Shown in pieces: positions 544-28,799 of a DNA stretch of 64,000 nt. Position 1 is the first letter of the stretch; each line of letters begins with the position of its first letter. Source of the DNA: Pseudomonadota bacterium (GTDB lineage: Bacteria > UBA10199 > 2-02-FULL-44-16 > JAAZCA01). A model generated the notes under the pieces. That model was given only the letters and a program-made list of their open reading frames with translations, searched no databases and was not told where the DNA came from. The position numbers were made by a program, and so were the translations under genes. The stretch spans positions 1,456 to 65,455 of the forward strand of contig JAFGMW010000116.1 in the NCBI GenBank assembly GCA_016927275.1, read 5' to 3'.

Positions 544-888
544 CCTCCGCTCAAATCTTGCCTAAGATAAATGATCCGTTGATATGACACAAGGTTATCA
601 AGATGCTTGAACCTGCTTCGGGTGGCGCCGGGTCGGGGGCCCCCATTTGACGCCAGCAGCCGCTTTCGATATTTGCCGATATTAGGTGATTGATGCGGCG
701 ATGCCGCAAATGGGGTTGACCCGGCGACAGGACCCGAAGCCACAAAAGCCATTGATATCATTAGGTTATTTATTGAGTCCGCATTGTTAATAAAAAAATG
801 AGGTTTCACGCAACCTCTCCCTTTTTCAGCCGATAACTATGGAGAAAGGGGAGGCCGGCGCACGGGAGTCCGCGCGCCGCCTATAGGG

Positions 889-3111
889 GTGATGAAAATA
901 GGTGTTCAGACAACTCTTCTTTCCTCCGTCTTTTCCTCCACTTCGATGGTGGGCGCGTCGCTCGCCGGCTCGCAGCTGGCCCTCGGTTCAGCGGGCATCT
1001 TCCTTGGGCCGAGCAGGAACCTGGCAGCGATCACCGCCTCACAGAGAGATCCAGGCCGCTGCCCTGCTGCTGTCTTTGCCAGGGCCAGCGCCACTGAGAC
1101 GCCGGCGTTCGGATATTCACAGGTCGCGCCCAGGGCAGCCATTGTGTCAAAGGCCGGGGCGGTCGCCTCAAAAAAGAATCCAGTCCAGACCGCGGCGGTC
1201 GGGGCCGCATCGAAGACGGAGGTGGCCGGCGAGAGGGGTTCGCCTCTTCTCCATGCGCCCTCTGAGGAGCGCGTTTCCGAGACGGGCGGTTCGGCCGATG
1301 CGCCGGATGAATCGGGCGTCATGGGCTGCTCGTCAGAGGGGTGCGCCGAGCGGTTCGAGTGTCCGGCGGAGTCGGTTGCCTTGTTCGCCCAGGCAGCTGT
1401 GATCGGCTTTGTTATCGGCGTGGAGTTCGCGATATCGGGCGGAGACGATGATGGGCTTTCGGTGTCCGGCGGCAGCGGAAAGGGCGCCGTCACTCCCTCC
1501 CAGCGCTTGACGCCGGAGCAGGGGGGCGCCATTCGCGGCCTTTCGGCCCGGCCCGCACTTGCGCAGGAGGAGACTTTGCGCCCTGTCTCCGATCTCGAGC
1601 CGTCGGCGCAGATGCGGTTCCCCGGTGCTGACGCTTCCTCCATAAGGTATATCGCGAAAGAAGCGGCCGAGGCCGATCGCGCGATCGACGCTTTTGCGAA
1701 GGGGCTGGCCGGCTCGGTCGCGGTCCTAACTGCCGCGGGACGTGGCGACAGGCCCAGGCTGATCTCGAATAAAATATTCCAGGAGCTCGCCAGGATGGGT
1801 TCCTTCAAGGGCGGGCCGTCGATCGCCGATTCGGAGGCGTTTACAGAGACGCTTGACGGCGCAGCGCTCGATCTCGAGATGGGCGGCCGCAGGATCGAGG
1901 CGATCTTCGCCAGGCACGACGGCAGGCTCGTATTCGCCGGATGGCGTGAGGCGGGGGACAGGGCCTTCGTGGCGCAGCCGGATGTCGCCCGCGAAGAGGC
2001 AGGCAGGATAGAGGCGCGCTTCGACGGGATGAGGGTCATGGGCCTCGGCCAGGCCGGCGGCGAGTCCTCTTTCGGCAAGGAACCGCTCGAGATAGACGAC
2101 CCCGAAGTCGTCGAGAGGCTCCTGGGCCTCATCCTCGCGCAGCTTGCGGCGGGGCCCGGGTCCCTTGCGCAGGGCGACATGCTCAGGCAGTTCAACGCCT
2201 TTGTCCGCGCCAGGCTCTCCAACGGATCGAGCGCGCCGCACACCCCGGAGCAGTGGGAGGCGTATCTCAAGGAGGCGCTGGTCTCGGCGGTCAGGCTCTC
2301 CATGCCATTCGACGAGAGGGGCGCTCGCTCCATAGAGCAGATCGAGTCGGACGCGGCGCGCATCCTGGGAATCGATCTCGTCAGGGTCTCGGAGTGGGAG
2401 GAGCACCTGGGCGCCGAGTTCATATCGGAGCAGCTCTTCGAGACCGCCGGGAGCCTGTCCATGGAGTTCGACCGGTCGTCGCCCAAGGCCAGGCTGGCCG
2501 CTGAATTCACAGGCTCGATAGAGTCCATGGCGAAGAGGGCCACGGGCGCGTCGCCCGATCCCGCGGTCCCGTTCGCCGACGAGGCCTCGGTCCAGTGGGG
2601 CGTGGCCCGCGCCGGCATGATGGAAGGGATCACCGCGAAGGCCGATCAGGCGGCAGGGCTCATGAGGGAGCTTCGCCTCTCCGGCAAAAGGGGCATGGCG
2701 TCGAGGGCGCTCGCCATAATCTTCAGGTCCTCCGATGCGAGCGAGGCGGGTGCGCGCGAGGACGGGATAGTCCCGCGCTGGTCCGAGGCCGAGGTCGCGG
2801 CGGTGGTCAAGAGGCTCATGACCGACGAGACCTGGGACGTGGCGAGCCACCGGTCGTTCCGCATGCACCTCACGCCGGCCGAGAACGCGTTCGCCAACCG
2901 CCTGGTGGAGATGGCCAACCTGCACAACGTCGTGGACGTGGTGCGCTCCTTAGACCTCGCCTCTGAGCGCGACATCGACGAGGTCTGGGAAGCGATCGAC
3001 TCTTCGGGGCAGGGCGAGGCCATCATGTCGATGGTCGTCGGGAAGATGACCGACATCCTGAGGCTGAGCCCCGGGATAATAGACGCTTCGATGAGCGAAG
3101 AGTTGAACTGA
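889..3111 (+). CDS. hypothetical protein, 740 aa
   Basis: Longest ORF in the region with balanced D/E/K/R composition. Overlapping minus-strand ORFs are S/P/R-rich, typical of antisense artefacts. No recognisable motif. Confidence 0.45.
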   Translation: MMKIGVQTTLLSSVFSSTSMVGASLAGSQLALGSAGIFLGPSRNLAAITASQRDPGRCPAAVFARASATETPAFGYSQVAPRAAIVSKAGAVASKKNPVQTAAVGAASKTEVAGERGSPLLHAPSEERVSETGGSADAPDESGVMGCSSEGCAERFECPAESVALFAQAAVIGFVIGVEFAISGGDDDGLSVSGGSGKGAVTPSQRLTPEQGGAIRGLSARPALAQEETLRPVSDLEPSAQMRFPGADASSIRYIAKEAAEADRAIDAFAKGLAGSVAVLTAAGRGDRPRLISNKIFQELARMGSFKGGPSIADSEAFTETLDGAALDLEMGGRRIEAIFARHDGRLVFAGWREAGDRAFVAQPDVAREEAGRIEARFDGMRVMGLGQAGGESSFGKEPLEIDDPEVVERLLGLILAQLAAGPGSLAQGDMLRQFNAFVRARLSNGSSAPHTPEQWEAYLKEALVSAVRLSMPFDERGARSIEQIESDAARILGIDLVRVSEWEEHLGAEFISEQLFETAGSLSMEFDRSSPKARLAAEFTGSIESMAKRATGASPDPAVPFADEASVQWGVARAGMMEGITAKADQAAGLMRELRLSGKRGMASRALAIIFRSSDASEAGAREDGIVPRWSEAEVAAVVKRLMTDETWDVASHRSFRMHLTPAENAFANRLVEMANLHNVVDVVRSLDLASERDIDEVWEAIDSSGQGEAIMSMVVGKMTDILRLSPGIIDASMSEELN

Positions 3112-3119
3112 TCGCCTCT

Positions 3120-4499
3120 TCAGTATCCCTTTGCGATCTCCCTTATCTTCATGATGCAATCCAGCACGTTTTCCGTCTTCGTGCCGCCGGGCTGCGACCT
3201 TCGCTCGACCGCGCTCTCGAAAGATATGCGTTCGGCGAGCTCCGTGTTCGGGACGGGGAGCGCCTCCCTGGACCCTTTGCGCGTGACCTCGTGGACCTGC
3301 ACGCCCATGCGCTCCGCCCGCTCCACCATGCTCGCGGTGGCCGCGTAGGCCTCCCTGAACGGCATGCCCTGCGAGGCGAGAGCGTCCGCCATCTCGGTCG
3401 CCAGTATGTGGCCGCGGCCGAGGAGCTCCCTCGCGCGTTCCCTGTTAAGCGCCAGCCCCCTGATCAGCGGTGTCAGCGCCGACAGGACCTCCCTCGTCTC
3501 GTCGAACGCCCTGATGAAGGTCTTCTTGAGCTCGTGAAGATCGCTCGCGTAGCTGGTTGGCAGAGACTTGGCGATCGAGTGCGCCTCGTTGGAGAGGGAG
3601 ACGATCCTGGCAGCCCTCGCCCTTGCGCACTCGGCGACGTCGGGGTTCCGCTTGTTCGGCATGATGGAGCTTCCGGTGGAGTGCTCCGCGGGCAGATCGA
3701 TAAGCCCAACGGCTGTCGAGGACCAGATGACGATGTCCTCGCTGAGCCTGCCTGTGTGGACAGCGACCGAGGCGAAGGCGTCCATGAGCTCGATCATGAA
3801 GTCGCGGTCCCCGACCGCGTCGTAGCTATTCATGGGGGGTGAGCAAAAGCCCAGCTCCTCGGCGCAGGCAACAAGATCAACTCTAAGCGGGGTGCCAGAA
3901 AGCGCAGCCGAGCCGAGAGGCATACGATCGAGGCATGCATCCCTCGCCGAGCGAAGTCTCCTCAAATCCCGCACGAAGGCCAGCGCGTGAGCAGAGGCGA
4001 TATGGCCGAACGAGACCGGCTGCGCGTGCTGCAGGTGCGTGGTGCCGGGTACGATCGCGTCCGCGCAACGCTCACCCAGGTCGCAGAGCGCCGCCGAGAG
4101 CGACGAGGCGCGTGATGCCGTATCTTCGGCGCATTTCGCCGCGAAGAGCCTGAGGGTCGTCGCCACGAGATCGTTCCTGGAGCGGCCCATGTGCATCTTC
4201 CTGCCGAGATCGCCCGCCTCCCCGGTCACGAACCGCTCCAGGTTCATGTGTATGTCCTCGTCCTCCACCCTCCAGTCAAAGGTGTTGTCCGATATCTTCC
4301 CGAGCGCTCGCTCGAGCAGCCCCAGGACCGCTTCGGTCTCCTCCGGGTCGAGATATCCGCCCCCGCCCAGGGCCCGAGCCCACGCCCTCTGCACGCGGAT
4401 CTCGTGCTGGGCGAGCCTGAGGTCGAACTCGATGCCTCCGGTGAACTCGTACAGCGCCCGCTCGCCGCCCCTGTTGCGATCCGTAATCAGTACGCCCAT
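3120..4499 (-). CDS. argH: argininosuccinate lyase
   Basis: Fumarate-lyase signature GSSIMPNKRNPD. Length (459 aa) and N-terminal layout match ArgH. Confidence 0.95.
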   Translation of the reverse strand: MGVLITDRNRGGERALYEFTGGIEFDLRLAQHEIRVQRAWARALGGGGYLDPEETEAVLGLLERALGKISDNTFDWRVEDEDIHMNLERFVTGEAGDLGRKMHMGRSRNDLVATTLRLFAAKCAEDTASRASSLSAALCDLGERCADAIVPGTTHLQHAQPVSFGHIASAHALAFVRDLRRLRSARDACLDRMPLGSAALSGTPLRVDLVACAEELGFCSPPMNSYDAVGDRDFMIELMDAFASVAVHTGRLSEDIVIWSSTAVGLIDLPAEHSTGSSIMPNKRNPDVAECARARAARIVSLSNEAHSIAKSLPTSYASDLHELKKTFIRAFDETREVLSALTPLIRGLALNRERARELLGRGHILATEMADALASQGMPFREAYAATASMVERAERMGVQVHEVTRKGSREALPVPNTELAERISFESAVERRSQPGGTKTENVLDCIMKIREIAKGY

Positions 4500-4520: not shown

Positions 4521-5732
4521 CTAGCCCAGAGCCTCAGGCTTTCTCCTCCCCGCCTGCCACTGCCTGTAGGAGAGGGTGCGGCAGAACCCGTGCGAGGCCT
4601 TGTTGAGCCCGAACTCATCGTGTTCAAAGCTCACCAGGGCCTTCCCGTAAAGGGAAAAAGGCGATGTCCTACCGGTTATGAACATGTGGCCGTTCTGGAT
4701 CTTGAGGCTGATCGTCCCGGTGAGCACACGGCTCGCCTCGGCGAAGTAGGCTTCTATCGCCTTCCTGGCGTCCGAGTGCCACAGCCCGTCGTAGACCAGC
4801 TCGGCATACCTCCTGCCCAGCTGGGATGATATTCCAAGGACGTTGCGGTCCCAGCACATGTGTTTGAGCACCTTGCAGGCGTAGTGGAGGATCGTTCCCC
4901 CGGGCGTCTCGTAGATGCCGCGGCACTTGATCCCGTTGGTCCGTTCCTCCACCATGTCCGCCACACCTATCCCGTGCTCTCCGCCGATCCCGTTGAGCGC
5001 CTGGAGCAGTCGCGCCGCCGACAGCCTTTCACCGTCGAGGCCGACTGGGATCCCCTCCTTGAACTCGATCGCAACCTCGGTCGGCATGTTTACGCAATGT
5101 GTGTGCGGCCTCGTCCACTCGTATATCCTCCCGGGGTCGAACTCCTTTTCCACCTCCTCGAGTATCTCTCCCTCGCACGATCTGTGGAGGAGGTTCACGT
5201 CGACGCTGTAGACGCTCGAGGCGCCGCCGGCGTCGAAGCCCCTGGACTCGAGGAAGCCGACCAGGTCGCTGCGGCCCTTGTAGTCCCAGATCTTCCACGG
5301 GGCGATGATCTCCATCTCCGGGACGAGATAGGCCCACGCCAGCTCGAAGCGGATCTGATCGTTGCCCTTTCCCGTGCATCCGTGCGCGATTGCGCGGGCG
5401 CCCTTCGCCTTTGCAATCTTCGCCACCCTCTCGGCTATCAATGGCCTGCCGAGCGCCGTGCCCAGCAGGTAGTCGTCCTGGTAGATCGCGCCGGCCCTCA
5501 CCGCCGGGAAGACGTAGTCGCGCGTGAGCTCCTCCTTGAGGTCCTCGAAGATGAACTCCGCTGCGCCGAGCTCCTTCGCCCTGCGCGCGAGCCAACCCTC
5601 GTCGGGCGCGTTGCCGAGGTCGGAGCAGTACGCGATCACCTCCGCGTCGTATTTCTCTACGAGCCACGGGATTATTGCCGATGTGTCCAGTCCGCCCGAA
5701 TATGCCAGCACGATCAGTTTTTTCTCCATCAC
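4521..5732 (-). CDS. argG: argininosuccinate synthase
   Basis: N-terminal AYSGGLDTS PP-loop motif. 403 aa, colinear with ArgG. Located upstream of argH. Confidence 0.95.
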   Translation of the reverse strand: MMEKKLIVLAYSGGLDTSAIIPWLVEKYDAEVIAYCSDLGNAPDEGWLARRAKELGAAEFIFEDLKEELTRDYVFPAVRAGAIYQDDYLLGTALGRPLIAERVAKIAKAKGARAIAHGCTGKGNDQIRFELAWAYLVPEMEIIAPWKIWDYKGRSDLVGFLESRGFDAGGASSVYSVDVNLLHRSCEGEILEEVEKEFDPGRIYEWTRPHTHCVNMPTEVAIEFKEGIPVGLDGERLSAARLLQALNGIGGEHGIGVADMVEERTNGIKCRGIYETPGGTILHYACKVLKHMCWDRNVLGISSQLGRRYAELVYDGLWHSDARKAIEAYFAEASRVLTGTISLKIQNGHMFITGRTSPFSLYGKALVSFEHDEFGLNKASHGFCRTLSYRQWQAGRRKPEALG

Positions 5733-5813
5733 CCCTCCTTTACATTAATATGCGCGACTAAGCATAAATAGTCACATTATACAAGTAAAAATGGGTTAAT
5801 TTATGATTTCATC

Positions 5814-5890: not shown

Positions 5891-8800
5891 CTATGAGCGC
5901 ATCGCTATCACCTGCAGCGCGGCATCGGTGCGGTATTTTTCAAGGGCCGCGACGGCGGCATTGCGGACGACCTCGTCCGGGTCGCGGGTGAGCTCTACCG
6001 CGCGCCTGGCCGATTCGGCGCAGTCGAAATGGGGGAGGGCCTGCGCCATCCGCAGCCGCACGACGGGATTCTCGTCGGTGCTCCTGGCTATGATCCAGGG
6101 CAGGATGCGCTCGTCCTCCGTGATGCTGAGCGCAGTGGCGACGACTGACCGCACCTCGTCATCGTTCGTGTGCAGGTAATGAGCCAGCCTGGGCACGTAT
6201 GGCGCCGTGTCCAGGCCGGTCCTCTTTAAAGCCGCGACAGCGCTTGCCGCTATTATAATGAGCTTCTGCGGCGCTTTCTCGGTCTCCAGCATGTCGAATA
6301 TGCTGTTCAGCCCATCTGCGGGCTTCAGCGCAAGGAGCGACTGCGCGGTGAACAATATCACCGTCGAGTCCTTTTCGGTCCTCAGCATCTCCTCCAGCAT
6401 CGGTGCGGCGCTCATAGGCTGGCGGAACATGCTTATCGCCTGCAGGGCGAGGAGCTTCAGGGTTGGAGAGTTCTCCGCCGAGCCCTCCTTGCCTGCGACG
6501 AGCGGCATGTCCATCATCGCCATGTGAAGGAGATCGCTGTCCGTGCAGTTATCAGGCATCTCCAGCGGATTCAGGATGGGCTTGCCGGTTGACTCCAGCG
6601 GGCTCTGCGTGATCCTGTCCATCATGGCGATCCAGTCCCTTTGATTGCGCCTCGGCGGTTCAAAGACCATGTCCCTCTTTCCGCGAGGCGAATTCGAGGC
6701 GCGCCCGACCCTCTTCGCTGTATTGTGGTAGCGCTCCAGGTCCCTGGCCAGCAGAGCGGCCACGTCCGGCGCATTCCACTTCATGAGAGCGTGCACTGCC
6801 AGGTATTTCACGCGAAGGTCCCTGTCGCCGGCCAAGTTTACGATCGATCTGATGAGCTCGATGCTCGGCCTCTCGATCTCCCTGTGGGAGGGGGTGCCCT
6901 TCCTCGGATCCGGCGGACCCTCGATCTCCGCCTCCGGCTGAGCGCCGCTCGCTTCCGGCTGCATATCCGTGATCATGGCCCTCAACGCCGCGATCCTCAC
7001 GTCGGGGTTTTCGTGATTCGAGAGGTTCTTCAGGTGACTCATCTTCTCCGCATCGTCCAGCAGTACGGCAGCCATTGCGGAGGCGATTTTGAAATGCGGT
7101 GAGCTGCGCTCCATGCCCAGCGTCTTCTTGACCCATGCGATCGCCTCATCCGACCTGTCCCCTTTCTTGAAGCAGGCGACAAGCAGCGCAGGGTGAGCCG
7201 CCGGATATCTCTCGAGGCTCTCTATGAGCATCGGGATGTCCGGTATCTGCGACGATCCCGTCGCCTTTTGAACCAGGCGGGTGATGATCGGGATGTACAC
7301 TTCGAAGCGGAGGTCCATGCCCGCAGGGGTTCTGCCGTTGGCTGCGGCGGCCTTGCCCGCAAGGTGGGCGATGATCCCGGCGGTGTGAACGGGATCGTCC
7401 AGCAGATCGTCAAATCTCTGGAATATCGCCTTGTAGCTTGCGGCGTCGAGCCCCCTGCCGTTCAATGATTTTTTATTGTTGAGCTTCTCCTGCAGATCTA
7501 TCGCCCAATCGACAAACGAGAGGGGGGAGATCGTTGCGTAGCGTCTGGCCAGGATCCTGGCCTTGATCCCCTGGAGCCTCAGCCTGTTGGCTTCCGCCCT
7601 CTTCCATTGGTTGCCCACGTGGTCCCCGGGAGCCCCTGTGTTCAGCGGATTGTTTCTCGTGAGAGTCATTATCGGGCTGACGACCGTTTGTTCGAGCATC
7701 AGGCCCACGGTTTCAGGATCGTAGAGCATGTCCGGATGGCTTTCGGTGTCAAAGTGACCGCCGTTCATGATCCTGGCCAGGAAGGCGTCGTCGCTTTCGG
7801 CCCACTTCTCTATGAGGGGGATGGAGTCTATGGACCTCAGTTTCTTAAGATGCTCGAGGGTGCTGCCGAATCTTAGGGCCGCCTCGGCTTCGAAGCCGTC
7901 CTCCGGGATCGTTGCGCGCGCCCTAGCGAGGGCGGCTCTGGATTCGGGAAAGTCGTCCACGAGCGGGTTGGCTTTGAAGTGGGCGGCCAGCTCCCTGCCC
8001 AGACCGGGTATTGCGCTGAGGATGTCGGGGTTGCGCATTATCTCCGAGTGGATGCGGTCTTCGCCCGACCGCTCGGTTCGGCCGCCCGCGCTCCATCTCG
8101 GTTCTTCCGGCTCTTCCCGGCCCGGGCCGAAGTCGTCTATGAAGATGTCATCTCCAGCCTTGTCGCGCGTCAGGTGCTCGAACAGCGGGGCGTTTTGTGA
8201 TATGAGCTTCGTCGCTATCTCGATCAGGAAGGGATGTTCGTCGAGAGACTCCGGCCGCCCCTTTATCCTCTTAACCGCCGCAGAGACCATCTTGGGATAC
8301 GCCTCGCTCTCGGCCCTCTCCTCCGCCTTCTTGGCCTCACGCTTCAAGATAATTTCTGTTGGAAGTGAAAGAAGCCCGTCGGATGGATCATCGATATCAA
8401 GCCTTTCCAGCAGGGCTGAGCCGCTCACCATCCTGTCGATGTTCATTTCAAGGCTGGACACGTCCATCGCGGACCAGAGCCTCAAGAAGGCCTCCTTAAG
8501 CTCCGACTCCTTGATCTCCCCGAGAGCGTAGGCGTAGAGATACTCCCCGATGTTCTCGCTGCTTCCGCGTTTGACGTCCATGATCACGTTGGCCCTGAGC
8601 TTGAGCCTCTCTTCGTCCGGGTCGCTTTCGTCGACGCTGAATGGCGCGTATATCTCGTGAAAGGGGACGGCCAGCACAGACCCGCCGAAAACATGGCCGG
8701 CCTTGAGCCATCGCATGCGCTCCCCTGAGTCGCTCCTGTCTCCGAAGAACCAGTCGTCGCTACCTTCCAGCACCATGACCATGTCCTCGTTCATCTGATT

Positions 8801-9433
8801 CTTTTTCGGCTCATGGTGCAGGGTCTGAAAGATGTGGTTCGAAGGGTCGGATTCGGCGTAGTCGATGCATTTTTCGGCCATGGCCATGGCGGATTGCATG
8901 CAGGTCGTCGAATGATCCTGCGAGCCATAGAGACGCTCGCATTGCTGCGCTTCCTTCGCGAAGTTGACGGCGCAAATATTAATCAGATCGTAACGGCTCA
9001 GAGGTTTCGAGGAGAGTGTGAACCGGGCACCTGCTGATCTGCCGGGCATTGCCGTCCCGTCAGGCCTATTTCTCTTTCCGGTCGTCGCCATGTGCAGAAA
9101 GAACTGGGGAGAATAATACAGGGCGTCGGAGTCAGATATGTAAGAGGCCGTGTCCGTTGAGAAAATTGAGATGAAAGAGCCGTCCGAGAGCCCCATCTCC
9201 ACCTGTTCGGCAAGGCATGTCTCGTCGGAGGGAGGCCCGTCGCCGCGGCACTCCATCCTGATCCTGTCGGCGAGACCGTCGCCGTTGAGATCGGCCTCGA
9301 TGGTGCGCCTTATCGCCTTGCCCTGGCTGTCGTTTTTCACCACGCCCATATCGAATCCCCTTCCGGGAGGCTCGTCGTCGGCCGTCACCGTTCGAGATTG
9401 GAACCCGCGACCCCGTTCTTCAGCCTGTTGCAC
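5891..9433 (-). CDS. large hypothetical protein (1180 aa) with C-terminal HEAT/PBS-lyase-type repeats
   Basis: C-terminal repeats of the form ENPDVRIAALRAM, DRDLRVKYLAVHAL, DENPVVRLRMAQAL and DPDEVVRNAAVAAL. The N-terminal region has a DLNGDGLAD motif and no other recognisable domain. GC content is lower than the flanking genes. Confidence 0.6.
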   Translation of the reverse strand: MQQAEERGRGFQSRTVTADDEPPGRGFDMGVVKNDSQGKAIRRTIEADLNGDGLADRIRMECRGDGPPSDETCLAEQVEMGLSDGSFISIFSTDTASYISDSDALYYSPQFFLHMATTGKRNRPDGTAMPGRSAGARFTLSSKPLSRYDLINICAVNFAKEAQQCERLYGSQDHSTTCMQSAMAMAEKCIDYAESDPSNHIFQTLHHEPKKNQMNEDMVMVLEGSDDWFFGDRSDSGERMRWLKAGHVFGGSVLAVPFHEIYAPFSVDESDPDEERLKLRANVIMDVKRGSSENIGEYLYAYALGEIKESELKEAFLRLWSAMDVSSLEMNIDRMVSGSALLERLDIDDPSDGLLSLPTEIILKREAKKAEERAESEAYPKMVSAAVKRIKGRPESLDEHPFLIEIATKLISQNAPLFEHLTRDKAGDDIFIDDFGPGREEPEEPRWSAGGRTERSGEDRIHSEIMRNPDILSAIPGLGRELAAHFKANPLVDDFPESRAALARARATIPEDGFEAEAALRFGSTLEHLKKLRSIDSIPLIEKWAESDDAFLARIMNGGHFDTESHPDMLYDPETVGLMLEQTVVSPIMTLTRNNPLNTGAPGDHVGNQWKRAEANRLRLQGIKARILARRYATISPLSFVDWAIDLQEKLNNKKSLNGRGLDAASYKAIFQRFDDLLDDPVHTAGIIAHLAGKAAAANGRTPAGMDLRFEVYIPIITRLVQKATGSSQIPDIPMLIESLERYPAAHPALLVACFKKGDRSDEAIAWVKKTLGMERSSPHFKIASAMAAVLLDDAEKMSHLKNLSNHENPDVRIAALRAMITDMQPEASGAQPEAEIEGPPDPRKGTPSHREIERPSIELIRSIVNLAGDRDLRVKYLAVHALMKWNAPDVAALLARDLERYHNTAKRVGRASNSPRGKRDMVFEPPRRNQRDWIAMMDRITQSPLESTGKPILNPLEMPDNCTDSDLLHMAMMDMPLVAGKEGSAENSPTLKLLALQAISMFRQPMSAAPMLEEMLRTEKDSTVILFTAQSLLALKPADGLNSIFDMLETEKAPQKLIIIAASAVAALKRTGLDTAPYVPRLAHYLHTNDDEVRSVVATALSITEDERILPWIIARSTDENPVVRLRMAQALPHFDCAESARRAVELTRDPDEVVRNAAVAALEKYRTDAALQVIAMRS

Positions 9434-11535: not shown

Positions 11536-11661
11536 AAAATCTCCTTTAATTTCAACATATTGAATTAATGTCCTATATAGATTATCGGTTGAGAAGGGCG
11601 CTGAGTTGCTTCATCTTTTCAATTTATGAAAAGAAAAAAGATTGATAACGGGCCCGCATCT

Positions 11662-11673
11662 GCATATTTATGC
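11662..11673. promoter_or_regulatory. ARG-box-like near-palindrome GCATATTTATGC upstream of argR
   Basis: Closely resembles the argG-upstream palindrome. It lies 16 nt upstream of the argR ATG at 11689. Confidence 0.3.
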
Positions 11674-11688
11674 TTATCAGGAGGGCAC

Positions 11689-12141
11689 ATGGACCATCTG
11701 AGGAGGCAGGAGATGATAGAGGCCTTGAGAAAGCTCCTCTCCGAGGGGTTTGAGGGGACGCAGGAGGAGATCTGCGAGGAGCTGGCAGGACAGGGGTTCG
11801 AGGTCAACCAGTCCACAGTCTCCCGGGCCCTGAGGAGGGTGGGCGCCGTCAAGTCCATGGCGGCCGGCAGGATCGCCTATCGGCTTGGCGAGGCCCGCTC
11901 GGCAGGGTTCACAGGGTCGGTCAGCGACCTGGTACAGACCATTGACGCAAACGACACGATGATCGCCATCAGGACGGTCGCCGGCTCCGCCTCGTTCGTG
12001 GCAGAGTTCCTGGACAGGGCGGGGCTCAGGAATGTGCTCGGGATAGTCGCGGGAGACGACACGATATTCGTTGCCCCGAGGCATACCGGGGAAATCGCCA
12101 CGACGCTGGAGGAGCTCCGCCAGGCGGTCAGGGGCGCTTAG
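11689..12141 (+). CDS. argR: arginine repressor
   Basis: N-terminal winged-helix with QSTVSRALRR and C-terminal GIVAGDDTIFV (ArgR GTIAGDDT motif). Start chosen at MDHLRRQE, which is preceded by AGGAGGG. Confidence 0.85.
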   Translation: MDHLRRQEMIEALRKLLSEGFEGTQEEICEELAGQGFEVNQSTVSRALRRVGAVKSMAAGRIAYRLGEARSAGFTGSVSDLVQTIDANDTMIAIRTVAGSASFVAEFLDRAGLRNVLGIVAGDDTIFVAPRHTGEIATTLEELRQAVRGA

Positions 12142-12249
12142 TCCTCCTCATCCGTCCGCCGGGCCGTTTTCGATCAAATTCAAAAAAACCAGGCAACTTT
12201 GGGCGGCATCCGGCGATAAAACTCCCTGAAGGAGGGGTCCCACATTACC

Positions 12250-13800
12250 ATGACCATGGCATCGACCAGCCCTGTTAGGTGGCCTTTCCCAAACGGGATG
12301 AGCGCGTTCTCCCCGGCCTTTTCAGGGGTGAGGCCTGAGATGCTCTCGAACATAAGGCCAGTTTCCGCGGAGCGGCCGTCGCCCGCGGGCGGAGTTTTCG
12401 AAGGGGCCGCCGGCCTCACCGAGGCGCGCGCGCGCGTCATGCTGTGCGGCGGATTTCCGTTGAGGGACGGCCGCGGCTGGACCTTCAGCGAGGCGGGCCA
12501 CCGCGAGATAGCGAGGGACTACTACAGGCGGTCGCGCGGGATGATCTTCGAGGGGAGCCGCTTCGACCAGAGGAGCGACTACCTCTTCACGAACGAAATC
12601 GACTACCACTCAGCGTTGTCGGCGATCAGCGGCAGGGGGGGTGCCTACGCCGGCGTGGGCCACATGCTCTCGTTCACCTATCCCGCATGGCAGGGCGCTG
12701 CTGACGCATACGCAGTGGACGCGAACGCGAGGGTCCCTTTCATCACCATCCCGCTGTACGGGCTCATGCTCGCAATGGCTGCCGACCGGATCGATCTCAT
12801 CTCGCTGCTCACCGGCAAGCTCGTCCCGAGATCGGCGAAATGGCGAGATCTCGTCGACGGGCCTCCGTGGCTGCTCATCGAGAACCTGATCGCGCTCCCG
12901 GGCAACCCTTCGTTCGCTGCGGCGGTGAAGCGGGAGCTGACCGAGACCCTGGTCGGCGCCGCGCCTTACCTCGACGCCGGATCGCTCGAGCACGAGGCCT
13001 CAGGCCTCGTCGACCGCATCAGGAATTCGATCCTCCGATCCAACGCCTCGTTTTACAGCCTGTTCAACCCGGTGGCGCTCATGAAGGCGAAGGACTCGGC
13101 CGGCCGCGGAGGGCCGCTGACTAGCGAGGAGCAGCTCCGGAGGGAGAGGTCGCTCTTCATAGAGGGCAGGATCACGGGGGTCGCCTCCCCGATACAGGCC
13201 GCGGGGCTCGATGCGGTGATGTCCCGCGTCTCGGAGTCCGGCGACCGCCTTGGCGTGATGTATCTGTCCAACCTCGAGGACTGGCTCTTCGACGACGTGG
13301 AGGAGGACGAGGAGGGCAGGCGCGACGGCGCGAAGGCCCAGAGGTTCGCAGAGGGGGTGGCCGCTCTTTACGGCAGGCTGCGCGGCTTCGACTATCCCGA
13401 GGAGTCGCTGCTCGTATCCGCGAAGGGCTGTTACCCCACCTCGGTCCACGGCCTCGTCGGATATCTCGGCGACTCAATGCCTCCCGACATGCCGCCCGCC
13501 GATGCCGGGCGTTCCGCGCGCCTGGTCTACAGGCTGCGCAGGGAGGCGGCCAGGGCGGGCCGCGAGCCGATCCGCCAGAGGCTCAAGTTCCTCGAGGGGC
13601 ATCTTGCAAAGAGGCCCGATCTGGCCGAGATCCCGGCCGCGCTGAGGAGGGGATGGAGGGGGAGCCCCTACGGGCAGAAAGAGGCGTGCCGTGCGCTGCT
13701 TGACAGGTCAGGGTATTTCAGGGGACTTACGGATTGGGAGCGTTCATCCGTGATCAGGATACTCATCGGGATGGGAGTCGTAAAAGGGGCGGGCGAATGA
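12250..13800 (+). CDS. hypothetical protein, 516 aa, paralog 1 of a tandem pair
   Basis: Shares long conserved blocks with the next gene, e.g. LFTNEIDYHSA..GGAYAGVGH..TYPAWQGAADAYAVD and ERSLFIEGRITGV..GERLG.MYLSNLEDWLF. No known family recognised. Confidence 0.6.
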   Translation: MTMASTSPVRWPFPNGMSAFSPAFSGVRPEMLSNIRPVSAERPSPAGGVFEGAAGLTEARARVMLCGGFPLRDGRGWTFSEAGHREIARDYYRRSRGMIFEGSRFDQRSDYLFTNEIDYHSALSAISGRGGAYAGVGHMLSFTYPAWQGAADAYAVDANARVPFITIPLYGLMLAMAADRIDLISLLTGKLVPRSAKWRDLVDGPPWLLIENLIALPGNPSFAAAVKRELTETLVGAAPYLDAGSLEHEASGLVDRIRNSILRSNASFYSLFNPVALMKAKDSAGRGGPLTSEEQLRRERSLFIEGRITGVASPIQAAGLDAVMSRVSESGDRLGVMYLSNLEDWLFDDVEEDEEGRRDGAKAQRFAEGVAALYGRLRGFDYPEESLLVSAKGCYPTSVHGLVGYLGDSMPPDMPPADAGRSARLVYRLRREAARAGREPIRQRLKFLEGHLAKRPDLAEIPAALRRGWRGSPYGQKEACRALLDRSGYFRGLTDWERSSVIRILIGMGVVKGAGE

Positions 13801-15290
13801 ACAGGTTCAACCCTCAGATCCCGGCTGCCGCGCCTTTGTCACAGCCGACCCTCGGCTTCGGGCCCATTCCCTCCATGCCGTTACTCAGGTCTCCGCACAT
13901 CCTGGATTCGACTGCGCATGCGGAAAGGCTGCGCGAGCAGGGGGCGTATCCCGAGCGCGCGTTCGGACGGTGGCGCGCGGACGCGCAGTCTCTGAAACAC
14001 GTGATGGAGGGGTATTTCGACAGGTCGAAACCGATGATCTCCGCGGGCAGCGACTCCAGCTCAAAGGTCGATTTTTTCCTCACCAACGAGCGGGGTTACA
14101 CTTCGGCCATAGGCAGCATCAAAGACAATGGAGGCGCTTTCGTGGGTGTGGGCAGGTGCGTGCCGGTCACCTATGCGGCATGGCAGAACGCGTCGCATGC
14201 CTATGTCGTGGACAGGAAGGCGGCCATACCGCTGGGCTTCACCCCCATCTACGGCGCATGGCTCTGCATGGCAGGGTCCCGCATCGAGTTTCTGTCGCTC
14301 ATACTGGGCAGGCCGCTGCAGAGGACGATCAACGCGGAGGGCTTTTCCGCAGAGGACATAGTCGACATAGTGCAGTCGATGCCCTTCGACGCATCGTTTG
14401 CGCGCTCCGTCGTGTCCGCCATAGCGTCCACCTTCACGATAAGCGCCAGGACCTCGGGCGTCCATTCCCTCAAGGGCGTGCTCATGGAATGGATGGCGAA
14501 GCTGGACAAGGCCTTTTATCGGCATCGCAGGTCAACGGGCGAGGAGATGAATCCGGCCGCAGCCCTCATGAGGCACGACCCGCAGGGACGCGGAGGCGCG
14601 CTGTCCAGCGATGCATCGTTCATGAGGCAGAGGGATGTCTTTCTGGAGGGGAGGATCACGGGCGTGTCCGGCGACATGATCGAAGGGGGCCTCGATATCG
14701 TGGAAGCGGATATGAGGAGAAGGGGGGAGAGGCTGGGGGCGCTGTACATCTCGAACATCGAAGACCTGCTTCTCTTCAACTACCTGTTCGACGAGAGGAA
14801 GCCCGATGTCTACACGAGGGTCCTCAGGGTGCAGAGGTACTACGACTTTTACCGCAGGATTGCGGCCGTGCCCGATGCGGAGGACGCCTTCGTGATATCC
14901 GCCAAGAAGAGGCGCGTGACGAGCGTGGACAGGGTGGCAAGATATGTCCGACGCAGCATCCCGCTCGAGCTGGGCGTCGATCAGGCCACCAACGCGGCCA
15001 AGGACTTCTATCGTCTTCGCGTGGACGTTGAGTTTCTAAAGGGCTTTCCTCTCATGGAGCGGCTCGAGCGGATTTCGAAGAGCTGCAGGAGCAGGCATCG
15101 GTTCAACATCGCGCTGTCTGTCCTCAGGTCGATCTTCCGCGGGAGCGCGGTGAACCGGGAGGCGTTCGAGGCGAGGCTGGCGAAAGAGTTCGATCGCAAA
15201 GGATTGGAGAGGAGCGGGTGGTGGGAGCGGATGTTCGTTGAAAATCTCGAGGAGCTGGGCCTTGTGACGAGGAGGCTCAGTCCTTCCTGA
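13797..15290 (+). CDS. hypothetical protein, ~497 aa, paralog 2 of a tandem pair
   Basis: Its ATG at 13797 overlaps the TGA of paralog 1 (ATGA), indicating translational coupling. Conserved blocks include FFLTNERGYTSA..GGAFVGVGR..TYAAWQNASHAYVVD and QRDVFLEGRITGV..GERLGALYISNIEDLLLF. Confidence 0.6.
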   Translation: MNRFNPQIPAAAPLSQPTLGFGPIPSMPLLRSPHILDSTAHAERLREQGAYPERAFGRWRADAQSLKHVMEGYFDRSKPMISAGSDSSSKVDFFLTNERGYTSAIGSIKDNGGAFVGVGRCVPVTYAAWQNASHAYVVDRKAAIPLGFTPIYGAWLCMAGSRIEFLSLILGRPLQRTINAEGFSAEDIVDIVQSMPFDASFARSVVSAIASTFTISARTSGVHSLKGVLMEWMAKLDKAFYRHRRSTGEEMNPAAALMRHDPQGRGGALSSDASFMRQRDVFLEGRITGVSGDMIEGGLDIVEADMRRRGERLGALYISNIEDLLLFNYLFDERKPDVYTRVLRVQRYYDFYRRIAAVPDAEDAFVISAKKRRVTSVDRVARYVRRSIPLELGVDQATNAAKDFYRLRVDVEFLKGFPLMERLERISKSCRSRHRFNIALSVLRSIFRGSAVNREAFEARLAKEFDRKGLERSGWWERMFVENLEELGLVTRRLSPS

Positions 15291-15474
15291 ACAGTATGGA
15301 AGCCAGGTAGAACATGCCGCCGCGCGACACCTTGGCGCCCGGCATCTGGGTCACCTCGGTCTTGACGTCCTGCACCGCGAACCCCCGCACGTCCGGCGAG
15401 TTGATAGCGTCGTTTATGCGCTCCTCGAGGTCGTACGGGCTCGTCGCCTCGACTATCTTCACTGTGAATTTCAT
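15277..15474 (-). CDS. small protein, 65 aa, possibly dodecin-like
   Basis: Size and sequence pattern (KIVEATSP..., beta-rich) resemble dodecin flavin-binding proteins. Located downstream of serS on the same strand. Weak call. Confidence 0.4.
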   Translation of the reverse strand: MKFTVKIVEATSPYDLEERINDAINSPDVRGFAVQDVKTEVTQMPGAKVSRGGMFYLASILFRKD

Positions 15475-19449: not shown

Positions 19450-19571
19450 AAGGTGTCTTTGGCGCCTGAGAGGCCCCCAGGAACCATGTGTATTTACGGG
19501 CGTTTTTTATTTTTTTAGAAAACAGAATTTTCAGGGCAACAAATCCCTGCGCCTGCCGATAAAGAAATTGA

Positions 19572-21731
19572 GTGGGGGAGAGAATCGGGGTCCTGGTGAT
19601 AAGGCGTGCTTTTTCAGCCGCAGCGCTTCTGTTCGTGGTCCTCTCGGCATCGGCGCTCCACGCAAACCCCAAGATAGACCCCTATCTGGACAGCTCGTCC
19701 GCCGATCCCGATTTCAAGGCGCTTTCCATAAGCGCCCCCCTTCCGAAGCCCGCCGATGATCCGCCGGTGGAGGTCTTTGTAAAGGCCTCCGATGTCGGCG
19801 CGGCGGCGGATCTGATATCTTCGCTCGGCGGCAGCGTCCGCGTGACCTCCGGTTCCGTGATCACCGCTTCCATTCAGGCGTCGGGCCTTGAGGACCTCGC
19901 AGGATCGGAAGACGTGGTCTTCATCGAGGCGGCCAAGCCGGTCGGTTTATCGAGCGACCTCGCGGGCGCCGAGATAGGCCTGCCGGAGGTGAGCGCCGGC
20001 ATGGGGCTGCCGGCCGGATACACCGGCGAAGGGATCGTCATCGGCATCGTGGACACGGGCGTCGATTATTCTCACCCGGATTTTCTGGATTCCGAGGGGC
20101 GCAGCCGCGTGCTCGCCATATGGGACCAGGGCCGCAGCGGCGGCCCCCCGCCGGCGGAGATAGCGAACAGCTACGGCAGCGAGTGCGAGCATGAGAAGAT
20201 TTCCAGCGGCACCTGCGCCCTCACCGACGCGGACGGCCACGGCACGCACGTGGCGGGGATCGCGGCGGGCAGGCACGGCCAGTATCGGGGCGTGGCCCCC
20301 GACGCCAACATCGTCGTGGTGAAGTACGACGCGAAGCTCGACCTCGAGTCGGGCTACGCCGACACCCTGTTCTCCACCAAGATCTGCGAGGCGGCATACT
20401 ACGTCTTCGCCAAGGCGGCGAAGTACGGCGTTCCGGCGGTCGTCAACATGAGCCTCGGCACGCACCTGGGCGCGCACGACGGGACGTCGCTCTTCGAGCA
20501 GTGCCTCGCAGGCCTTGCACAGGGCCAGGCTGGCCGCGCCCTCGTGGCGGCCGCCGGCAACGAGCACAACTCGGACCGCAGCTACACCGGGATACACGCC
20601 GGGTTCGACCCTGCCGGCAGGGAACTCGCGTCGAATTTCGTGATAAGGCAGAAGACCGGCGACCGCCTCTACTACATCGACCTGTGGGGTGCCAAGGGCT
20701 CCGACATTGCGGTGGGGCTCGCGATACACAACGGCACCCCTTCCAGAGACCCGGCGCAGCGCTCCTATATGGCGAGACCGGGCGACAAGATCTCCGGCTC
20801 GTTCTACAGCGGGAAGATAAAGTATCTCATCAACGCGACGGAGAAGAGCTCGCCGCTAAACGGCAAGCCGCACGTGGGGATAAGGATTCAGCTGTCCACT
20901 GAGGTGGAGAACCCGCTGGCATACTCGTTCGACCTGGTGGTCAAGGGAACAGGCGGATTCGACGCCTGGCTCTTCCCCGACAAGCCGGCGCGGACGATGG
21001 AGTTCACCGCGATCGAGGGGAACAAGGGCGGCGCCTACGACTACGTCCCCGGCGACCGCATCAAGAGCATCGCGATACCTGCCACATCCCCTGAGGTCAT
21101 AGCGGTCGCGGCGTACGCCACCCGGACGCGCTGGGAGGCGGACTCCCTGACATGGGTATTCAACGGCCAGGAGCTCGGCGACATACTCAACTTCTCTAGC
21201 TCGGGCCCCACCGCGGACCCGGCGTTCACGGGGCAGAAGCCCGAGCTGGCCGCCCCGGGCGGCATGGTGGCGTCCGCGCTCTCCGCGAGCGCCGGCGTCT
21301 CGAGCCAGGTCATCACCGCGGACGGGAAACATTATATGCAGGCCGGGACCTCCATGGCCGCGCCGTTCGTGAGCGGCGCCGTCGCGCTCATGTTCCAGCA
21401 CAACCCGAACTTCACGCAAACGGACGTGGAGGCGTTCCTCACGCAGGGAGCGTACGCCGACTCATTCACCGGGGGCGTGCCCAACGACAGGTGGGGGGCC
21501 GGCAAGCTCGACCTGCTCAAGTCCATGGAGCTTGCGGTCAACGGGACCGCCTCGGGCAGCTTCGCGGCGCAGGGATCGGTCTCCATCCCCTCCGGAGACG
21601 GGGGAAGCGGCGGATGCGAGATGATCGCCTCGGCCTCGGGCGCGGGAAGCCCTGCGGCATTGGTTATCGCAGCGGCGCTTGCGCTGTGCGCCATGGCTTG
21701 GAGGAAAAGGACCGAGACATCGATTCGGTGA
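19572..21731 (+). CDS. secreted subtilisin-like serine peptidase (S8) with a C-terminal GG-Cys-TM-RKR sorting-signal-like tail
   Basis: Signal peptide plus the S8 catalytic triad: GIVDTGVD (Asp), HGTHVAGIAAG (His), GTSMAAPFVSGAVAL (Ser). C-terminus is GGSGGCEMIASASGAGSPAALVIAAALALCAMAWRKR. Confidence 0.9.
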   Translation: MGERIGVLVIRRAFSAAALLFVVLSASALHANPKIDPYLDSSSADPDFKALSISAPLPKPADDPPVEVFVKASDVGAAADLISSLGGSVRVTSGSVITASIQASGLEDLAGSEDVVFIEAAKPVGLSSDLAGAEIGLPEVSAGMGLPAGYTGEGIVIGIVDTGVDYSHPDFLDSEGRSRVLAIWDQGRSGGPPPAEIANSYGSECEHEKISSGTCALTDADGHGTHVAGIAAGRHGQYRGVAPDANIVVVKYDAKLDLESGYADTLFSTKICEAAYYVFAKAAKYGVPAVVNMSLGTHLGAHDGTSLFEQCLAGLAQGQAGRALVAAAGNEHNSDRSYTGIHAGFDPAGRELASNFVIRQKTGDRLYYIDLWGAKGSDIAVGLAIHNGTPSRDPAQRSYMARPGDKISGSFYSGKIKYLINATEKSSPLNGKPHVGIRIQLSTEVENPLAYSFDLVVKGTGGFDAWLFPDKPARTMEFTAIEGNKGGAYDYVPGDRIKSIAIPATSPEVIAVAAYATRTRWEADSLTWVFNGQELGDILNFSSSGPTADPAFTGQKPELAAPGGMVASALSASAGVSSQVITADGKHYMQAGTSMAAPFVSGAVALMFQHNPNFTQTDVEAFLTQGAYADSFTGGVPNDRWGAGKLDLLKSMELAVNGTASGSFAAQGSVSIPSGDGGSGGCEMIASASGAGSPAALVIAAALALCAMAWRKRTETSIR

Positions 21732-26675: not shown

Positions 26676-28250
26676 CTATCTCAGCGGTCCCCGCAGGCCC
26701 ATCATCAACGAGGCCCCTCCGTTGAGCGGGGGGATGAACGGACCCCGGTTTGCGACTGCGCCGAGAGGGCTCAATGCGGGCGCGAAGGGCAGGTTCGACG
26801 GGCGGACCGGCGGTGCGGCATCCCGTCCTTCGGGGTCGCGGTTGTCGTCGCCCGACGGGATCTCGATCACCATCGACCCGTGACGATACTCTATCTTTCC
26901 GCCGACCCTCGCAGCGAGCGTGTCCAGCTCCGCCCTGCCGTGGCTGGCCGGTCCCAGCGCCGCAAAGGCGCTGCGGCCTTCGGTCAGATCGGTCACCACG
27001 AGAGTCCTCCGGTCAGGCCTCCAGTCCACGTCCACGCGGGCAGGCGTCACGGGCCGCAACGACGAGGCAGGCGCGGACCCGTCGTACGCATACGATGCAC
27101 CCATGAGGAAGACGAGCCTGGCGGCCAGCCGCTTAAGATGCCTGTTGTTCCTCGCGGTTATCAGGGCGTCATGGGGGGCGCTCACCCTGACGTCGAGCCA
27201 TGGCCGCGCCTCGCGTTCCGCGCCGAAGCTCCTCATGAGCGAGAGCGGGCAGAATATCCCGCGGCAGCTGTCTGCCGTCTCGGCGTTCCTGAAGATGTTG
27301 ACCAGCGCAGTCAAGGCGGACGGATTCCCGGCGAGGTCAATCCAGGGGAGCCTGTCCAGGAAGTGGTCCATGAGCCCGGCGACGAATGCGCTCTCCCACC
27401 TGCCGCCGAGCGCCTCGTTTTTTCGAAATCCCTTGAATGCGCCGAAGAGCGCTTTCAGCGGCATGGCGTCCAAGCCCACTGACCTCGCCGTCGAGGCATT
27501 GTCGATCCCCTCCGGCCTCAGGAATGCGCGCTCCAGCCTGAACAACAGTTTCTCCGCCATGAGATATAGGTCGGAGGAGAGGCTCTCCCATGCCTGGAGG
27601 TAGTCCGCCGCGTTTGTGGTGGCCGCCACCCTCCTGCTGAACTGCTCGATCAGCGAAACGGACCACAGCTTGCTGCCATAGCCCTCGATCATCACCTCGT
27701 AGTTGTTGACGCGCTCCACCCTCAACGCGCCGTCGGCGGTGGTCGCCTCGTCGTCGAAGGGGAACTCATCGCCTTCGACGACGGCCTTGAAGTCGAGATG
27801 GGCGAGCAGCGGCGCATTGGTGCGCATGGCCGATGAAACTGTGAACACCGCGAGCGCGGCGGAGTCGATCTCGTCCTCTTCGAGCTGGTGCCTGTCGGCG
27901 CCGATGATCATGCGGCCGTGCGGGGTGTGGGCCACGAATCCGCCGGTCGGGAGGTCCTCGAGCCACAGGAGGTCGCGGTCTGCCCTGAGGATGTCTTCAA
28001 ACGATCTGGTTATCGCCTCGGCGGATATGCCGTCTGAAAACAGCAGCGGGAAGATCGAGCGCCCGGCGCCCGCCCCGCTGGGGAAGATGTCATTGAAGAG
28101 GGCGCTCACGGCGTTGTCGTAGGAATCCTCGTTCCCGCGCGCGAGGGCGACCACATTGCGCCACTTGTCCTCGAGCGGCTCTATCTCCCTGAGCAGGTCG
28201 AGCACCGTCGCTTTTCTCATTTCCACCGGGTGCGCCAATTTTCCCTCCAT
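26676..28250 (-). CDS. hypothetical protein, 524 aa
   Basis: Long ORF with balanced composition, downstream of the PilZ gene on the same strand. No recognisable motif. Confidence 0.5.
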   Translation of the reverse strand: MEGKLAHPVEMRKATVLDLLREIEPLEDKWRNVVALARGNEDSYDNAVSALFNDIFPSGAGAGRSIFPLLFSDGISAEAITRSFEDILRADRDLLWLEDLPTGGFVAHTPHGRMIIGADRHQLEEDEIDSAALAVFTVSSAMRTNAPLLAHLDFKAVVEGDEFPFDDEATTADGALRVERVNNYEVMIEGYGSKLWSVSLIEQFSRRVAATTNAADYLQAWESLSSDLYLMAEKLLFRLERAFLRPEGIDNASTARSVGLDAMPLKALFGAFKGFRKNEALGGRWESAFVAGLMDHFLDRLPWIDLAGNPSALTALVNIFRNAETADSCRGIFCPLSLMRSFGAEREARPWLDVRVSAPHDALITARNNRHLKRLAARLVFLMGASYAYDGSAPASSLRPVTPARVDVDWRPDRRTLVVTDLTEGRSAFAALGPASHGRAELDTLAARVGGKIEYRHGSMVIEIPSGDDNRDPEGRDAAPPVRPSNLPFAPALSPLGAVANRGPFIPPLNGGASLMMGLRGPLR

Positions 28251-28376
28251 CCATCAGAAAGCGCCGACAAGCTTTTATCGGCAGGAGGGGAAATTAGTTG
28301 CTATATATTATGCTTTTTACCGGGCTGATGGATAAGGGGCGGTCTGATGTCTAACAGTTTGTAATAAAAGGACAAA

Positions 28377-28763
28377 TCAATTGGAACGGGTCTTGAGGAA
28401 TCGCTCGATCGCCTTGTGCGAGAGGGAGAAGAGGTTCGTGAACCGGATCCCGATGCCGGTCTCGGTTCCGCTCTCCTCCACGCGGGTTATGTTGCCGCGC
28501 ATGGCGACGTCGCGGTCCTTGTCTGAGAGGTCGAAGATCACCTCGATCGGCCTGTTGTTGGAGATGCACTGCTGATCCGCCCTGATGTACATGCCGCCGC
28601 AGCTTATGTTGAGGGCCGTGGCAGGGATGATCCGGCCCCTGTGCCTGAGTATCACCGGGAGCTCGATCCCCAATCTCTGATGGCGGCGTCTCTCTTCCAT
28701 TTGGCCCTCATTATCGGCGAAGGTATTTTTGGGTGCAACCGTTTTCACCCCATGTATCGGCAT
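28377..28763 (-). CDS. PilZ-domain (c-di-GMP-binding) protein
   Basis: RRxxxR motif (ERRRHQRL) and D/NxSxxG motif (NISCGGMYI) at the spacing characteristic of PilZ. 128 aa. Confidence 0.7.
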   Translation of the reverse strand: MPIHGVKTVAPKNTFADNEGQMEERRRHQRLGIELPVILRHRGRIIPATALNISCGGMYIRADQQCISNNRPIEVIFDLSDKDRDVAMRGNITRVEESGTETGIGIRFTNLFSLSHKAIERFLKTRSN

Positions 28764-28799
28764 GCCTCCAAATAAGTTGCGTGACTTCTTCGACCAGAA

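Follow-up and report, generated by a model that had tools for sequence, protein, structure and literature searches.

Overlapping DUF7790 paralogs downstream of argR with a predicted methyltransferase-like fold and a candidate promoter of their own

We have analyzed a stretch of 64,000 nucleotides (nt) from contig JAFGMW010000116.1 of a Pseudomonadota bacterium (assembly GCA_016927275.1), referred to here as the window, and in particular two adjacent open reading frames, ORF1 and ORF2, that follow argR on the same strand and belong to the uncharacterized protein family DUF7790. Our explanation, held as a whole with about even confidence, is that they are transcribed separately from argR, are coupled in translation and code for two methyltransferase-like enzymes of the cytoplasm, which may form a heteromer. 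The two genes would form a bicistronic operon of two paralog types (A and B), and in each protein a divergent methyltransferase-like core of class I (Rossmann type) would hold a large helical insert and be joined to a C-terminal helical domain. Transcription would start from an alternative-sigma promoter of their own, GCAACTTT-N11-GGCGATAA, with a -10 element of the sigma-28 (FliA) type, and the operon would share a regulon with an S8 peptidase, a PilZ protein and two proteins without assigned function, of 740 and 524 amino acids (aa). The two products probably work together, possibly within one complex.

The gene pair and its family

ORF1 (12250-13800, forward strand, 516 aa, type A) and ORF2 (13797-15290 counted from its ATG, forward strand, 497 aa, type B) are paralogs, with 31% identity across 448 aa and an E value of 2e-58 in BLASTP, far above chance. 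The ATG of ORF2 (13797-13799) sits on the TGA of ORF1 (13798-13800), and the overlap at 13797-13800 on the forward strand reads ...ggcgaATGAac.... An earlier note on this DNA had described both the paralogy and the overlap, and it had placed the start of ORF1 108 nt after argR on the same strand; all this was borne out, the argR stop being at 12141. The three conserved blocks that it had quoted for the two proteins could also be seen in the BLASTP alignment, with small deviations ((L/V)F in place of LF, and G(D/E)RLG). A Shine-Dalgarno-like sequence, AGGAGGGG, is located on the forward strand at 12230-12237, 12 nt before the ATG of ORF1 (14 nt if counted from its AGGAGG core). The first ~60 aa of ORF1 are rich in proline and serine and contain no signal peptide. 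At the other end of the pair, ORF2 terminates in RLSPS (15273-15287), and many members of the family likewise have a proline in the second-to-last position (...PS, ...PA, ...PE, ...PD), after a variable and probably disordered tail.

Both proteins are members of DUF7790 (Pfam PF25046), an assignment of high confidence: ORF1 scored 44.8 bits and ORF2 46.5 bits against a gathering cut-off of 23, and 53 of 54 aligned relatives also matched the model. Two stretches match, the best of them spanning only positions 1-77 of the 272 in the profile. A profile built from the 54 sequences had a sole match in the PDB profile search, 6ULO (E 1e-23), an uncharacterized protein of Leptospira interrogans. The comparison with Pfam and PDB that had been suggested in the earlier note led in this way to DUF7790 and 6ULO and to no characterized family. 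Its statement that the pair fits no known enzyme family holds as far as families characterized by sequence are concerned, and has to be amended in that a Pfam family and a predicted methyltransferase-like fold could be assigned.

DUF7790 has few members: when 1.84 billion representative proteins were searched exhaustively, 115 relatives appeared at E <= 1e-3, and only 25 of them at E <= 1e-30. Word-indexed homologue searches, including one with the 54-sequence profile, retrieved only 3 clusters, and scanning a genome collection with a DUF7790 pattern detected no relative. Three loci were recovered by a metagenome scan, two of them already known and one new from the same clade.

Neither ORF1 nor ORF2 has a lipobox or a hydrophobic N-terminal segment (the maximum Kyte-Doolittle hydropathy over 12 residues was 0.88 and 1.18), and their scores with the NCBIfam equivalog LIC_10091 (LipL40), 19.0 and 24.4 bits, were far under its cut-off of 350. 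Signal peptides are absent, with rare exceptions, throughout the close subfamily (P0001-P0036, about 430-660 aa). Judging from these N-termini, the subfamily of the window pair is cytoplasmic. In this it differs from LipL40 and its like, which are exported lipoproteins of 330-430 aa. The window proteins, with ~500 aa, also depart from the LipL40/6ULO family by a disordered N-terminal tail and an additional helical domain (about 110 aa) at the C terminus, by a subfamily-specific GRGG motif and by their occurrence as tandem overlapping paralogs.

Some of the exported members (set P0044-P0119) carry signals resembling those of twin-arginine translocation (Tat), for example P0086 (RRRFLATL). Fusions of DUF7790 were also observed, with HEAT-like repeats in P0113 and with an M23 peptidase in P0085, and in P0047 the domain lies inside a protein of 1355 aa in which a second methyltransferase-like motif is apparent. 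The fusion in P0113, together with HEAT genes that lie close to DUF7790 genes in the window (5891-9433, reverse strand), in locus L001 and in L010 (3962-5047), prompted the idea of a functional link with HEAT-repeat proteins. It is kept here only as a remark because the HEAT proteins show no detectable homology to each other beyond the repeats.

Predicted fold and conserved pocket

The AlphaFold model of ORF2 (predicted local distance difference test, pLDDT, 90.3; predicted template modelling score, pTM, 0.89) shows a Rossmann fold of the methyltransferase type and reproduces the fold of the solved family member 6ULO. The class I methyltransferase-like alpha/beta core would correspond to residues ~90-380 (14064-14936, forward strand) and contains, between alphaB and beta3, a helical insert of ~120 aa (residues 162-283). 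Behind it comes a C-terminal domain of five helices (residues 388-497; 14958-15287, forward strand) that is specific to the ~500-aa subfamily and possibly ends in a winged helix. Outside the family the structural matches were methyltransferases with few exceptions and included no other Rossmann class; the best of these was the chemotaxis receptor methyltransferase CheR (1BC5). Based on the model, a methyltransferase-like fold can be predicted for ORF1 and ORF2 with high confidence.

The residues conserved across the family, in ORF2 numbering, are N97 E98, G112 G113, G117-x-G119, D139, D293 and Y317-x-S319-N320-x-E322. In the model, N97-E98 and G112-G113 precede the first core strand, G117-V-G119 comes after strand 114-118 (beta1) and D139 closes strand 134-139 (beta2), these last two sites being nearly invariant in the 54 sequences; G-D293 follows beta3 and Y317-x-S319-N320-x-E322 is found at the end of beta4. 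The window proteins share with class I methyltransferases the Rossmann-type core, the glycine loop after beta1, the acidic residue ending beta2, the GD after beta3 and the conserved polar residues ending beta4. As mapped by secondary-structure position in the model, with no superposition, the conserved residues occupy the four canonical positions at which class I enzymes contact S-adenosylmethionine (SAM). All the invariant pocket residues are kept in both ORF1 and ORF2. Our leading guess would be a SAM-dependent methylation of a macromolecule by the two proteins, with the transfer of methyl groups from SAM considered somewhat short of an even chance.

A number of results weigh against this activity. 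No methyltransferase match was found for ORF1 or ORF2 in Pfam or NCBIfam at E values up to 1, and 6ULO was the only significant match with Foldseek. The relationship to CheR was not supported at the profile level, where the family profile and E. coli CheR were aligned by hhalign with a probability of 0.4%. The ORF2 model also differs from class I methyltransferases in its 120-aa helical insert and in having only six clear core strands. As in LipL40, a signal peptide or a lipobox is found in most of the distant DUF7790 members (330-430 aa), and these exported proteins retain N97, E98, G112, G117, G119, D139, D293, S319 and N320. Outside the cytoplasm such proteins have no SAM at their disposal, and the pocket shared with them may therefore bind another ligand.

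These observations bring up the alternative that the methyltransferase-like fold was repurposed, with a non-SAM ligand in the pocket or with the proteins serving as non-catalytic binders. Such an origin would fit a mostly exported, LipL40-like family whose lipoproteins keep the pocket residues, the lack of a sequence-level tie to any methyltransferase family, and the experimental literature on Leptospira LipL40, which deals only with plasminogen binding in vitro or with its use as a non-binding control. We regard it as rather unlikely for the window pair, since the conserved residues fall on the four canonical SAM-contact positions, structural matches outside the family point almost exclusively to methyltransferases and to no other Rossmann class, and the subfamily appears to be cytoplasmic.

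Tandem organization in relatives

We have compared the region with metagenome relatives that form one synteny block with the window (L001/L002, L003, L004/L005, L008/L009 and L094). In their shared gene order argR is followed by two to three DUF7790 genes, then by an oppositely oriented gene with a product of 65 aa, by serS and by the genes of a DsbA-like protein, a major facilitator superfamily (MFS) transporter and an S8 peptidase. When the paralogs were assigned by tblastn to type A (like ORF1), type B (like ORF2) or a third type C, the window had A and B, loci L001 and L004 had A and C, and the three remaining loci (L003, L008, L094) had A, B and C. In the loci of this clade type A always comes first and is always accompanied by B and/or C. 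A 4-nt overlap joins it to the gene that follows in four loci (the window, L001, L003 and L008), and in L004 the two genes are 97 nt apart.

The translational coupling proposed in the earlier note is in agreement with this recurrence of the 4-nt overlap, which also makes it reasonable to think of a stoichiometric co-production of the two proteins, perhaps as subunits of a heteromer. There are heteromeric methyltransferases of paralogous subunits, such as METTL3-METTL14 and Trm6-Trm61, in which one subunit is catalytically degenerate. The window pair resembles them in that two paralogs with a methyltransferase fold would be made together, and differs from them in that both keep every conserved residue of the pocket. 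The tandem pattern with type A first, the three tandem copies in L012, which belongs to an unrelated lineage, and the pocket kept in every copy are compatible with a heteromeric enzyme, without being a proof of it, and a heteromer of ORF1 and ORF2 seems to us a fair way from certain, a little below an even chance.

The paralogs could also be independent enzymes with different substrates, found in tandem through their origin by duplication and without forming a complex. Both have the complete set of pocket residues, with no sign that one of them is a degenerate scaffold, the copy number varies (A+B, A+C or A+B+C), and solitary copies exist in L006 and L010, all of which would suit independence. 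The conserved 4-nt overlap of the first two genes and the retention of type A, accompanied by B, C or both, throughout the clade argue otherwise, and we consider independent enzymes doubtful, joint action of the two products being the reading that we prefer.

The small gene of the block (15277-15474, reverse strand) is convergent with ORF2, with an overlap of 14 nt at the 3' end of ORF2, and lies downstream of serS. Its 65-aa product (MKFTVKIVEATSPYDLEERINDAI...GGMFYLASILFRKD), to which no family is assigned, is about 90-98% identical across loci (98% in L094), DUF7790 proteins being only 40-52% identical.

A promoter-like footprint between argR and ORF1

Within the gap between argR and ORF1 there is a footprint on the forward strand (12176-12219) composed of an A-tract, GCAACTTT (12193-12200), a spacer of 11 nt and GGCGATAA (12212-12219), which ends 30 nt before the ATG of ORF1. 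In an alignment of this gap from five loci, between which identity of the type-A proteins only reaches about 41-43%, the A-tract, GCAACTTT, the 11-nt distance and GGCGATA(A/C/T) were invariant, the rest of the gap being unalignable. The motif GCAAC-N14-G[CG]CGATA has five exact copies in the window, all of them intergenic and oriented toward the next gene, and if one mismatch is allowed there are 9 matches against 0.83 expected. An A-rich tract is found upstream of the recurrent copies.

The first copy (810-835, forward strand, GCAAC-N14-GCCGATA) precedes the gene of the 740-aa protein (889-3111), whose ortholog in L003 and L008 has the motif as well. The second (12193-12219, forward strand, GCAAC-N14-GGCGATAA) is the one before ORF1, and the third (19536-19561, forward strand) lies before the S8 peptidase gene (19572-21731) and is conserved in L001 and L003. 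The fourth (28276-28301) and the fifth (28755-28780), both on the reverse strand, precede respectively the gene of the 524-aa protein (26676-28250) and a PilZ gene (28377-28763; PilZ E 2e-15) whose real start probably lies inside this frame. No copy is present before the housekeeping genes of the window. In relatives it was detected in L001 at 15167, in L003 at 3612 and 14933, in L008 at 476 and, on the reverse strand, in L013 at 104 and L014 at 463.

The motif is also present where there is no argR. In L006 the variant ACAACTTT-N11-GCCGATAC is directly upstream of the DUF7790 gene, in L007 the exact motif precedes two genes, one of which is a DUF7790 gene, and in L012 GCAAC-N14-GCCGATT is found before a DUF7790 gene and after a terminator hairpin. 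As DUF7790 genes without argR are also preceded by the motif, exact or altered in one base, a promoter of its own would seem to travel with the family, and we think it quite probable that the window pair has such a promoter in the gap. As a separate observation, the second gene with the motif in L007 (634-2241) codes for a 535-aa protein outside DUF7790 that shares with the DUF7790 protein of the locus (P0014, 3450-5429) a C-terminal tail of ~105 aa with 59% identity, so that the same motif precedes both tail-sharing genes.

A scan for sigma-70 promoters between 11400 and 15700 gave none, and terminator-like sites in the same interval were restricted to one antisense site in the gap and one inside ORF2. 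Weighing against separate transcription, there is no convincing terminator after argR in the window, nor a comparable structure in L001, and read-through from argR is for this reason possible. In L003, a strong hairpin with a U-run directly after argR (6330-6362) is likely a terminator. Two other candidates were rejected: the gap gave no credible Rfam match to a regulatory RNA, and for a defence system PADLOC, run on ORF1, ORF2 and the adjacent genes, gave nothing but one generic match to HEAT.

Which sigma factor

The consensus of the -10 element for sigma-28 is GCCGATAA (PMC12784957). The element before ORF1, GGCGATAA, agrees with it in 7 of 8 positions, and of the other copies in the window three have GCCGATAA itself and one has GCCGATAC. 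In E. coli the complete sigma-28 consensus is TAAAGTTT-N11-GCCGATAA, and the 11-nt spacer between two 8-mers is the same in the window. The -35 element GCAACTTT coincides with TAAA(GTTT) in 5 of 8 positions and its spacing fits, although it would also be compatible with the -35 of a sigma factor of the extracytoplasmic function (ECF) type. A PilZ gene belongs to the same putative regulon, just as ycgR, which codes for a PilZ protein, belongs to the sigma-28 regulon of E. coli.

Some features speak against sigma-28. The window copies have GCAAC(T/A)(T/A)(T/A) at -35 instead of TAAA, and because of this difference an ECF-type factor is possible; the spacing AAC-N16-CGA would also fit the ECF pattern AAC-N16-CGx. 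Besides, no flagellar gene, fliA, flgM or sigma-factor gene was found within the 64 kb. Sigma-28 is only marginally favoured by us over another alternative sigma factor.

argR, ARG boxes and the arginine question

The gene upstream of the pair is a genuine argR (11689-12141, forward strand, 150 aa), with E values of 3e-13 for Pfam Arg_repressor, 6e-19 for Arg_repressor_C and 2e-32 for TIGR01529. Its longest open reading frame starts at 11626, but the true start is probably the ATG at 11689, because homologues have 150-157 aa and a GGAGGG Shine-Dalgarno sequence precedes this ATG. The extension from 11626 to 11688 contains that site and an ARG box. The latter, TCTGCATATTTATGCTTA (11659-11676, no strand assigned), lies 12 nt upstream of the probable start and has 3 mismatches to TNTGAATWWWWATTCANW; the operator that the earlier note had seen upstream of argR is therefore real. 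It is located within a divergent intergenic region shared with an operon on the reverse strand that codes for proteins of 220, 492 and 1180 aa, the last one with HEAT repeats. The only other site in the window (5759-5776, no strand assigned) is just upstream of argG (4521-5732, reverse strand, Pfam argininosuccinate synthase), which is followed by argH (3120-4499, reverse strand, Pfam argininosuccinate lyase). Counting both strands and allowing up to 3 mismatches, the window has 4 ARG-box matches against 0.39 expected, and TAAGCATAAATAKKCA is identical in the two sites. In L008 there are also two ARG-box sites, at 5305-5322 and 5396-5413, in the intergenic region between argG and argR. The argGH genes are directly divergent from argR in L008, L009 and L094, and in the window and L001 the reverse-strand operon mentioned above separates them.

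From this neighbourhood the earlier note had suggested that the pair responds to arginine and possibly has a function related to arginine or polyamines. In such a scheme ORF1 and ORF2 would be transcribed together with argR from the promoter controlled by the ARG box, and their products would carry out an arginine or polyamine reaction. The proximity of argR (108 nt, same strand, no clear intrinsic terminator in the window), the real ARG box before it and the adjacency of argR and DUF7790 in all members of the clade, in spite of a variable upstream gene (the HEAT operon, argGH or a 719-aa gene), are the points that recommend it. Also N320, E322 and D323, after beta4, could in principle bind a cationic group.

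The evidence from the gap and from the relatives goes in the opposite direction. The gap (12142-12249) has no ARG box even with up to 3 mismatches allowed, and it contains instead the conserved footprint described above; the same motif or a one-base variant is found before DUF7790 genes where argR is absent; and L003 has the terminator-like hairpin and U-run after argR. The association with argR is confined to a single synteny block, so that its conservation across independent contexts could not be upheld. It is missing in L006 (a solitary copy on a contig of 907 kb), L007, L010/L011 and L012 (an unrelated lineage with three tandem copies), none of which has arginine genes near DUF7790, and the nearest genomes by SerS (at best 72% identity, to a 'Pseudomonadota bacterium' metagenome-assembled genome, and 65-68% to others) have no DUF7790 gene beside serS. 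The note itself had accepted that transcription independent of argR would speak against its proposal, and it is toward such transcription that the comparison of loci points.

We thus consider co-transcription with argR and an arginine-related function very unlikely. What the pair has in common with the ArgR regulon is the vicinity of a genuine argR with an ARG-box-like palindrome and of a second one before argGH; what sets it apart is that no ARG box lies directly before the DUF7790 genes, that these have a separate promoter motif and that argR is no longer their neighbour outside one block. On the basis of these patterns the supposed connection with arginine most likely reflects a chance gene order, argR being probably a bystander, and ArgR would control only itself and argGH.

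Implications

DUF7790 was already catalogued, and the window pair would be a variant of a known fold. The biochemical function is known for no member of the family, and what we describe is a modest advance and no surprise: an uncharacterized enzyme-like family in a metagenome-assembled genome. A much more ambitious version, in which the ~500-aa DUF7790 proteins are new heteromeric SAM-dependent enzymes that modify protein or nucleic acid with the help of a C-terminal domain resembling a winged helix and count among the conserved core members of a motility or developmental regulon of the sigma-28 type in a deep uncultured lineage, with the pocket also explaining LipL40, appears unlikely to us.

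If the explanation favoured here is true, a coupled pair of methyltransferase-like enzymes with their own promoter, the adjacency to argR is misleading in this case. DUF7790, including LipL40 and the orphan structure 6ULO, would gain a fold and a testable activity, namely SAM binding and methyl transfer. In addition, GCAAC-N14-GCCGATAA would mark the regulon of an alternative sigma factor in an uncultured lineage and could be used to map it genome-wide, a regulon that would comprise a protease, a PilZ protein, DUF7790 genes and proteins without assigned function.

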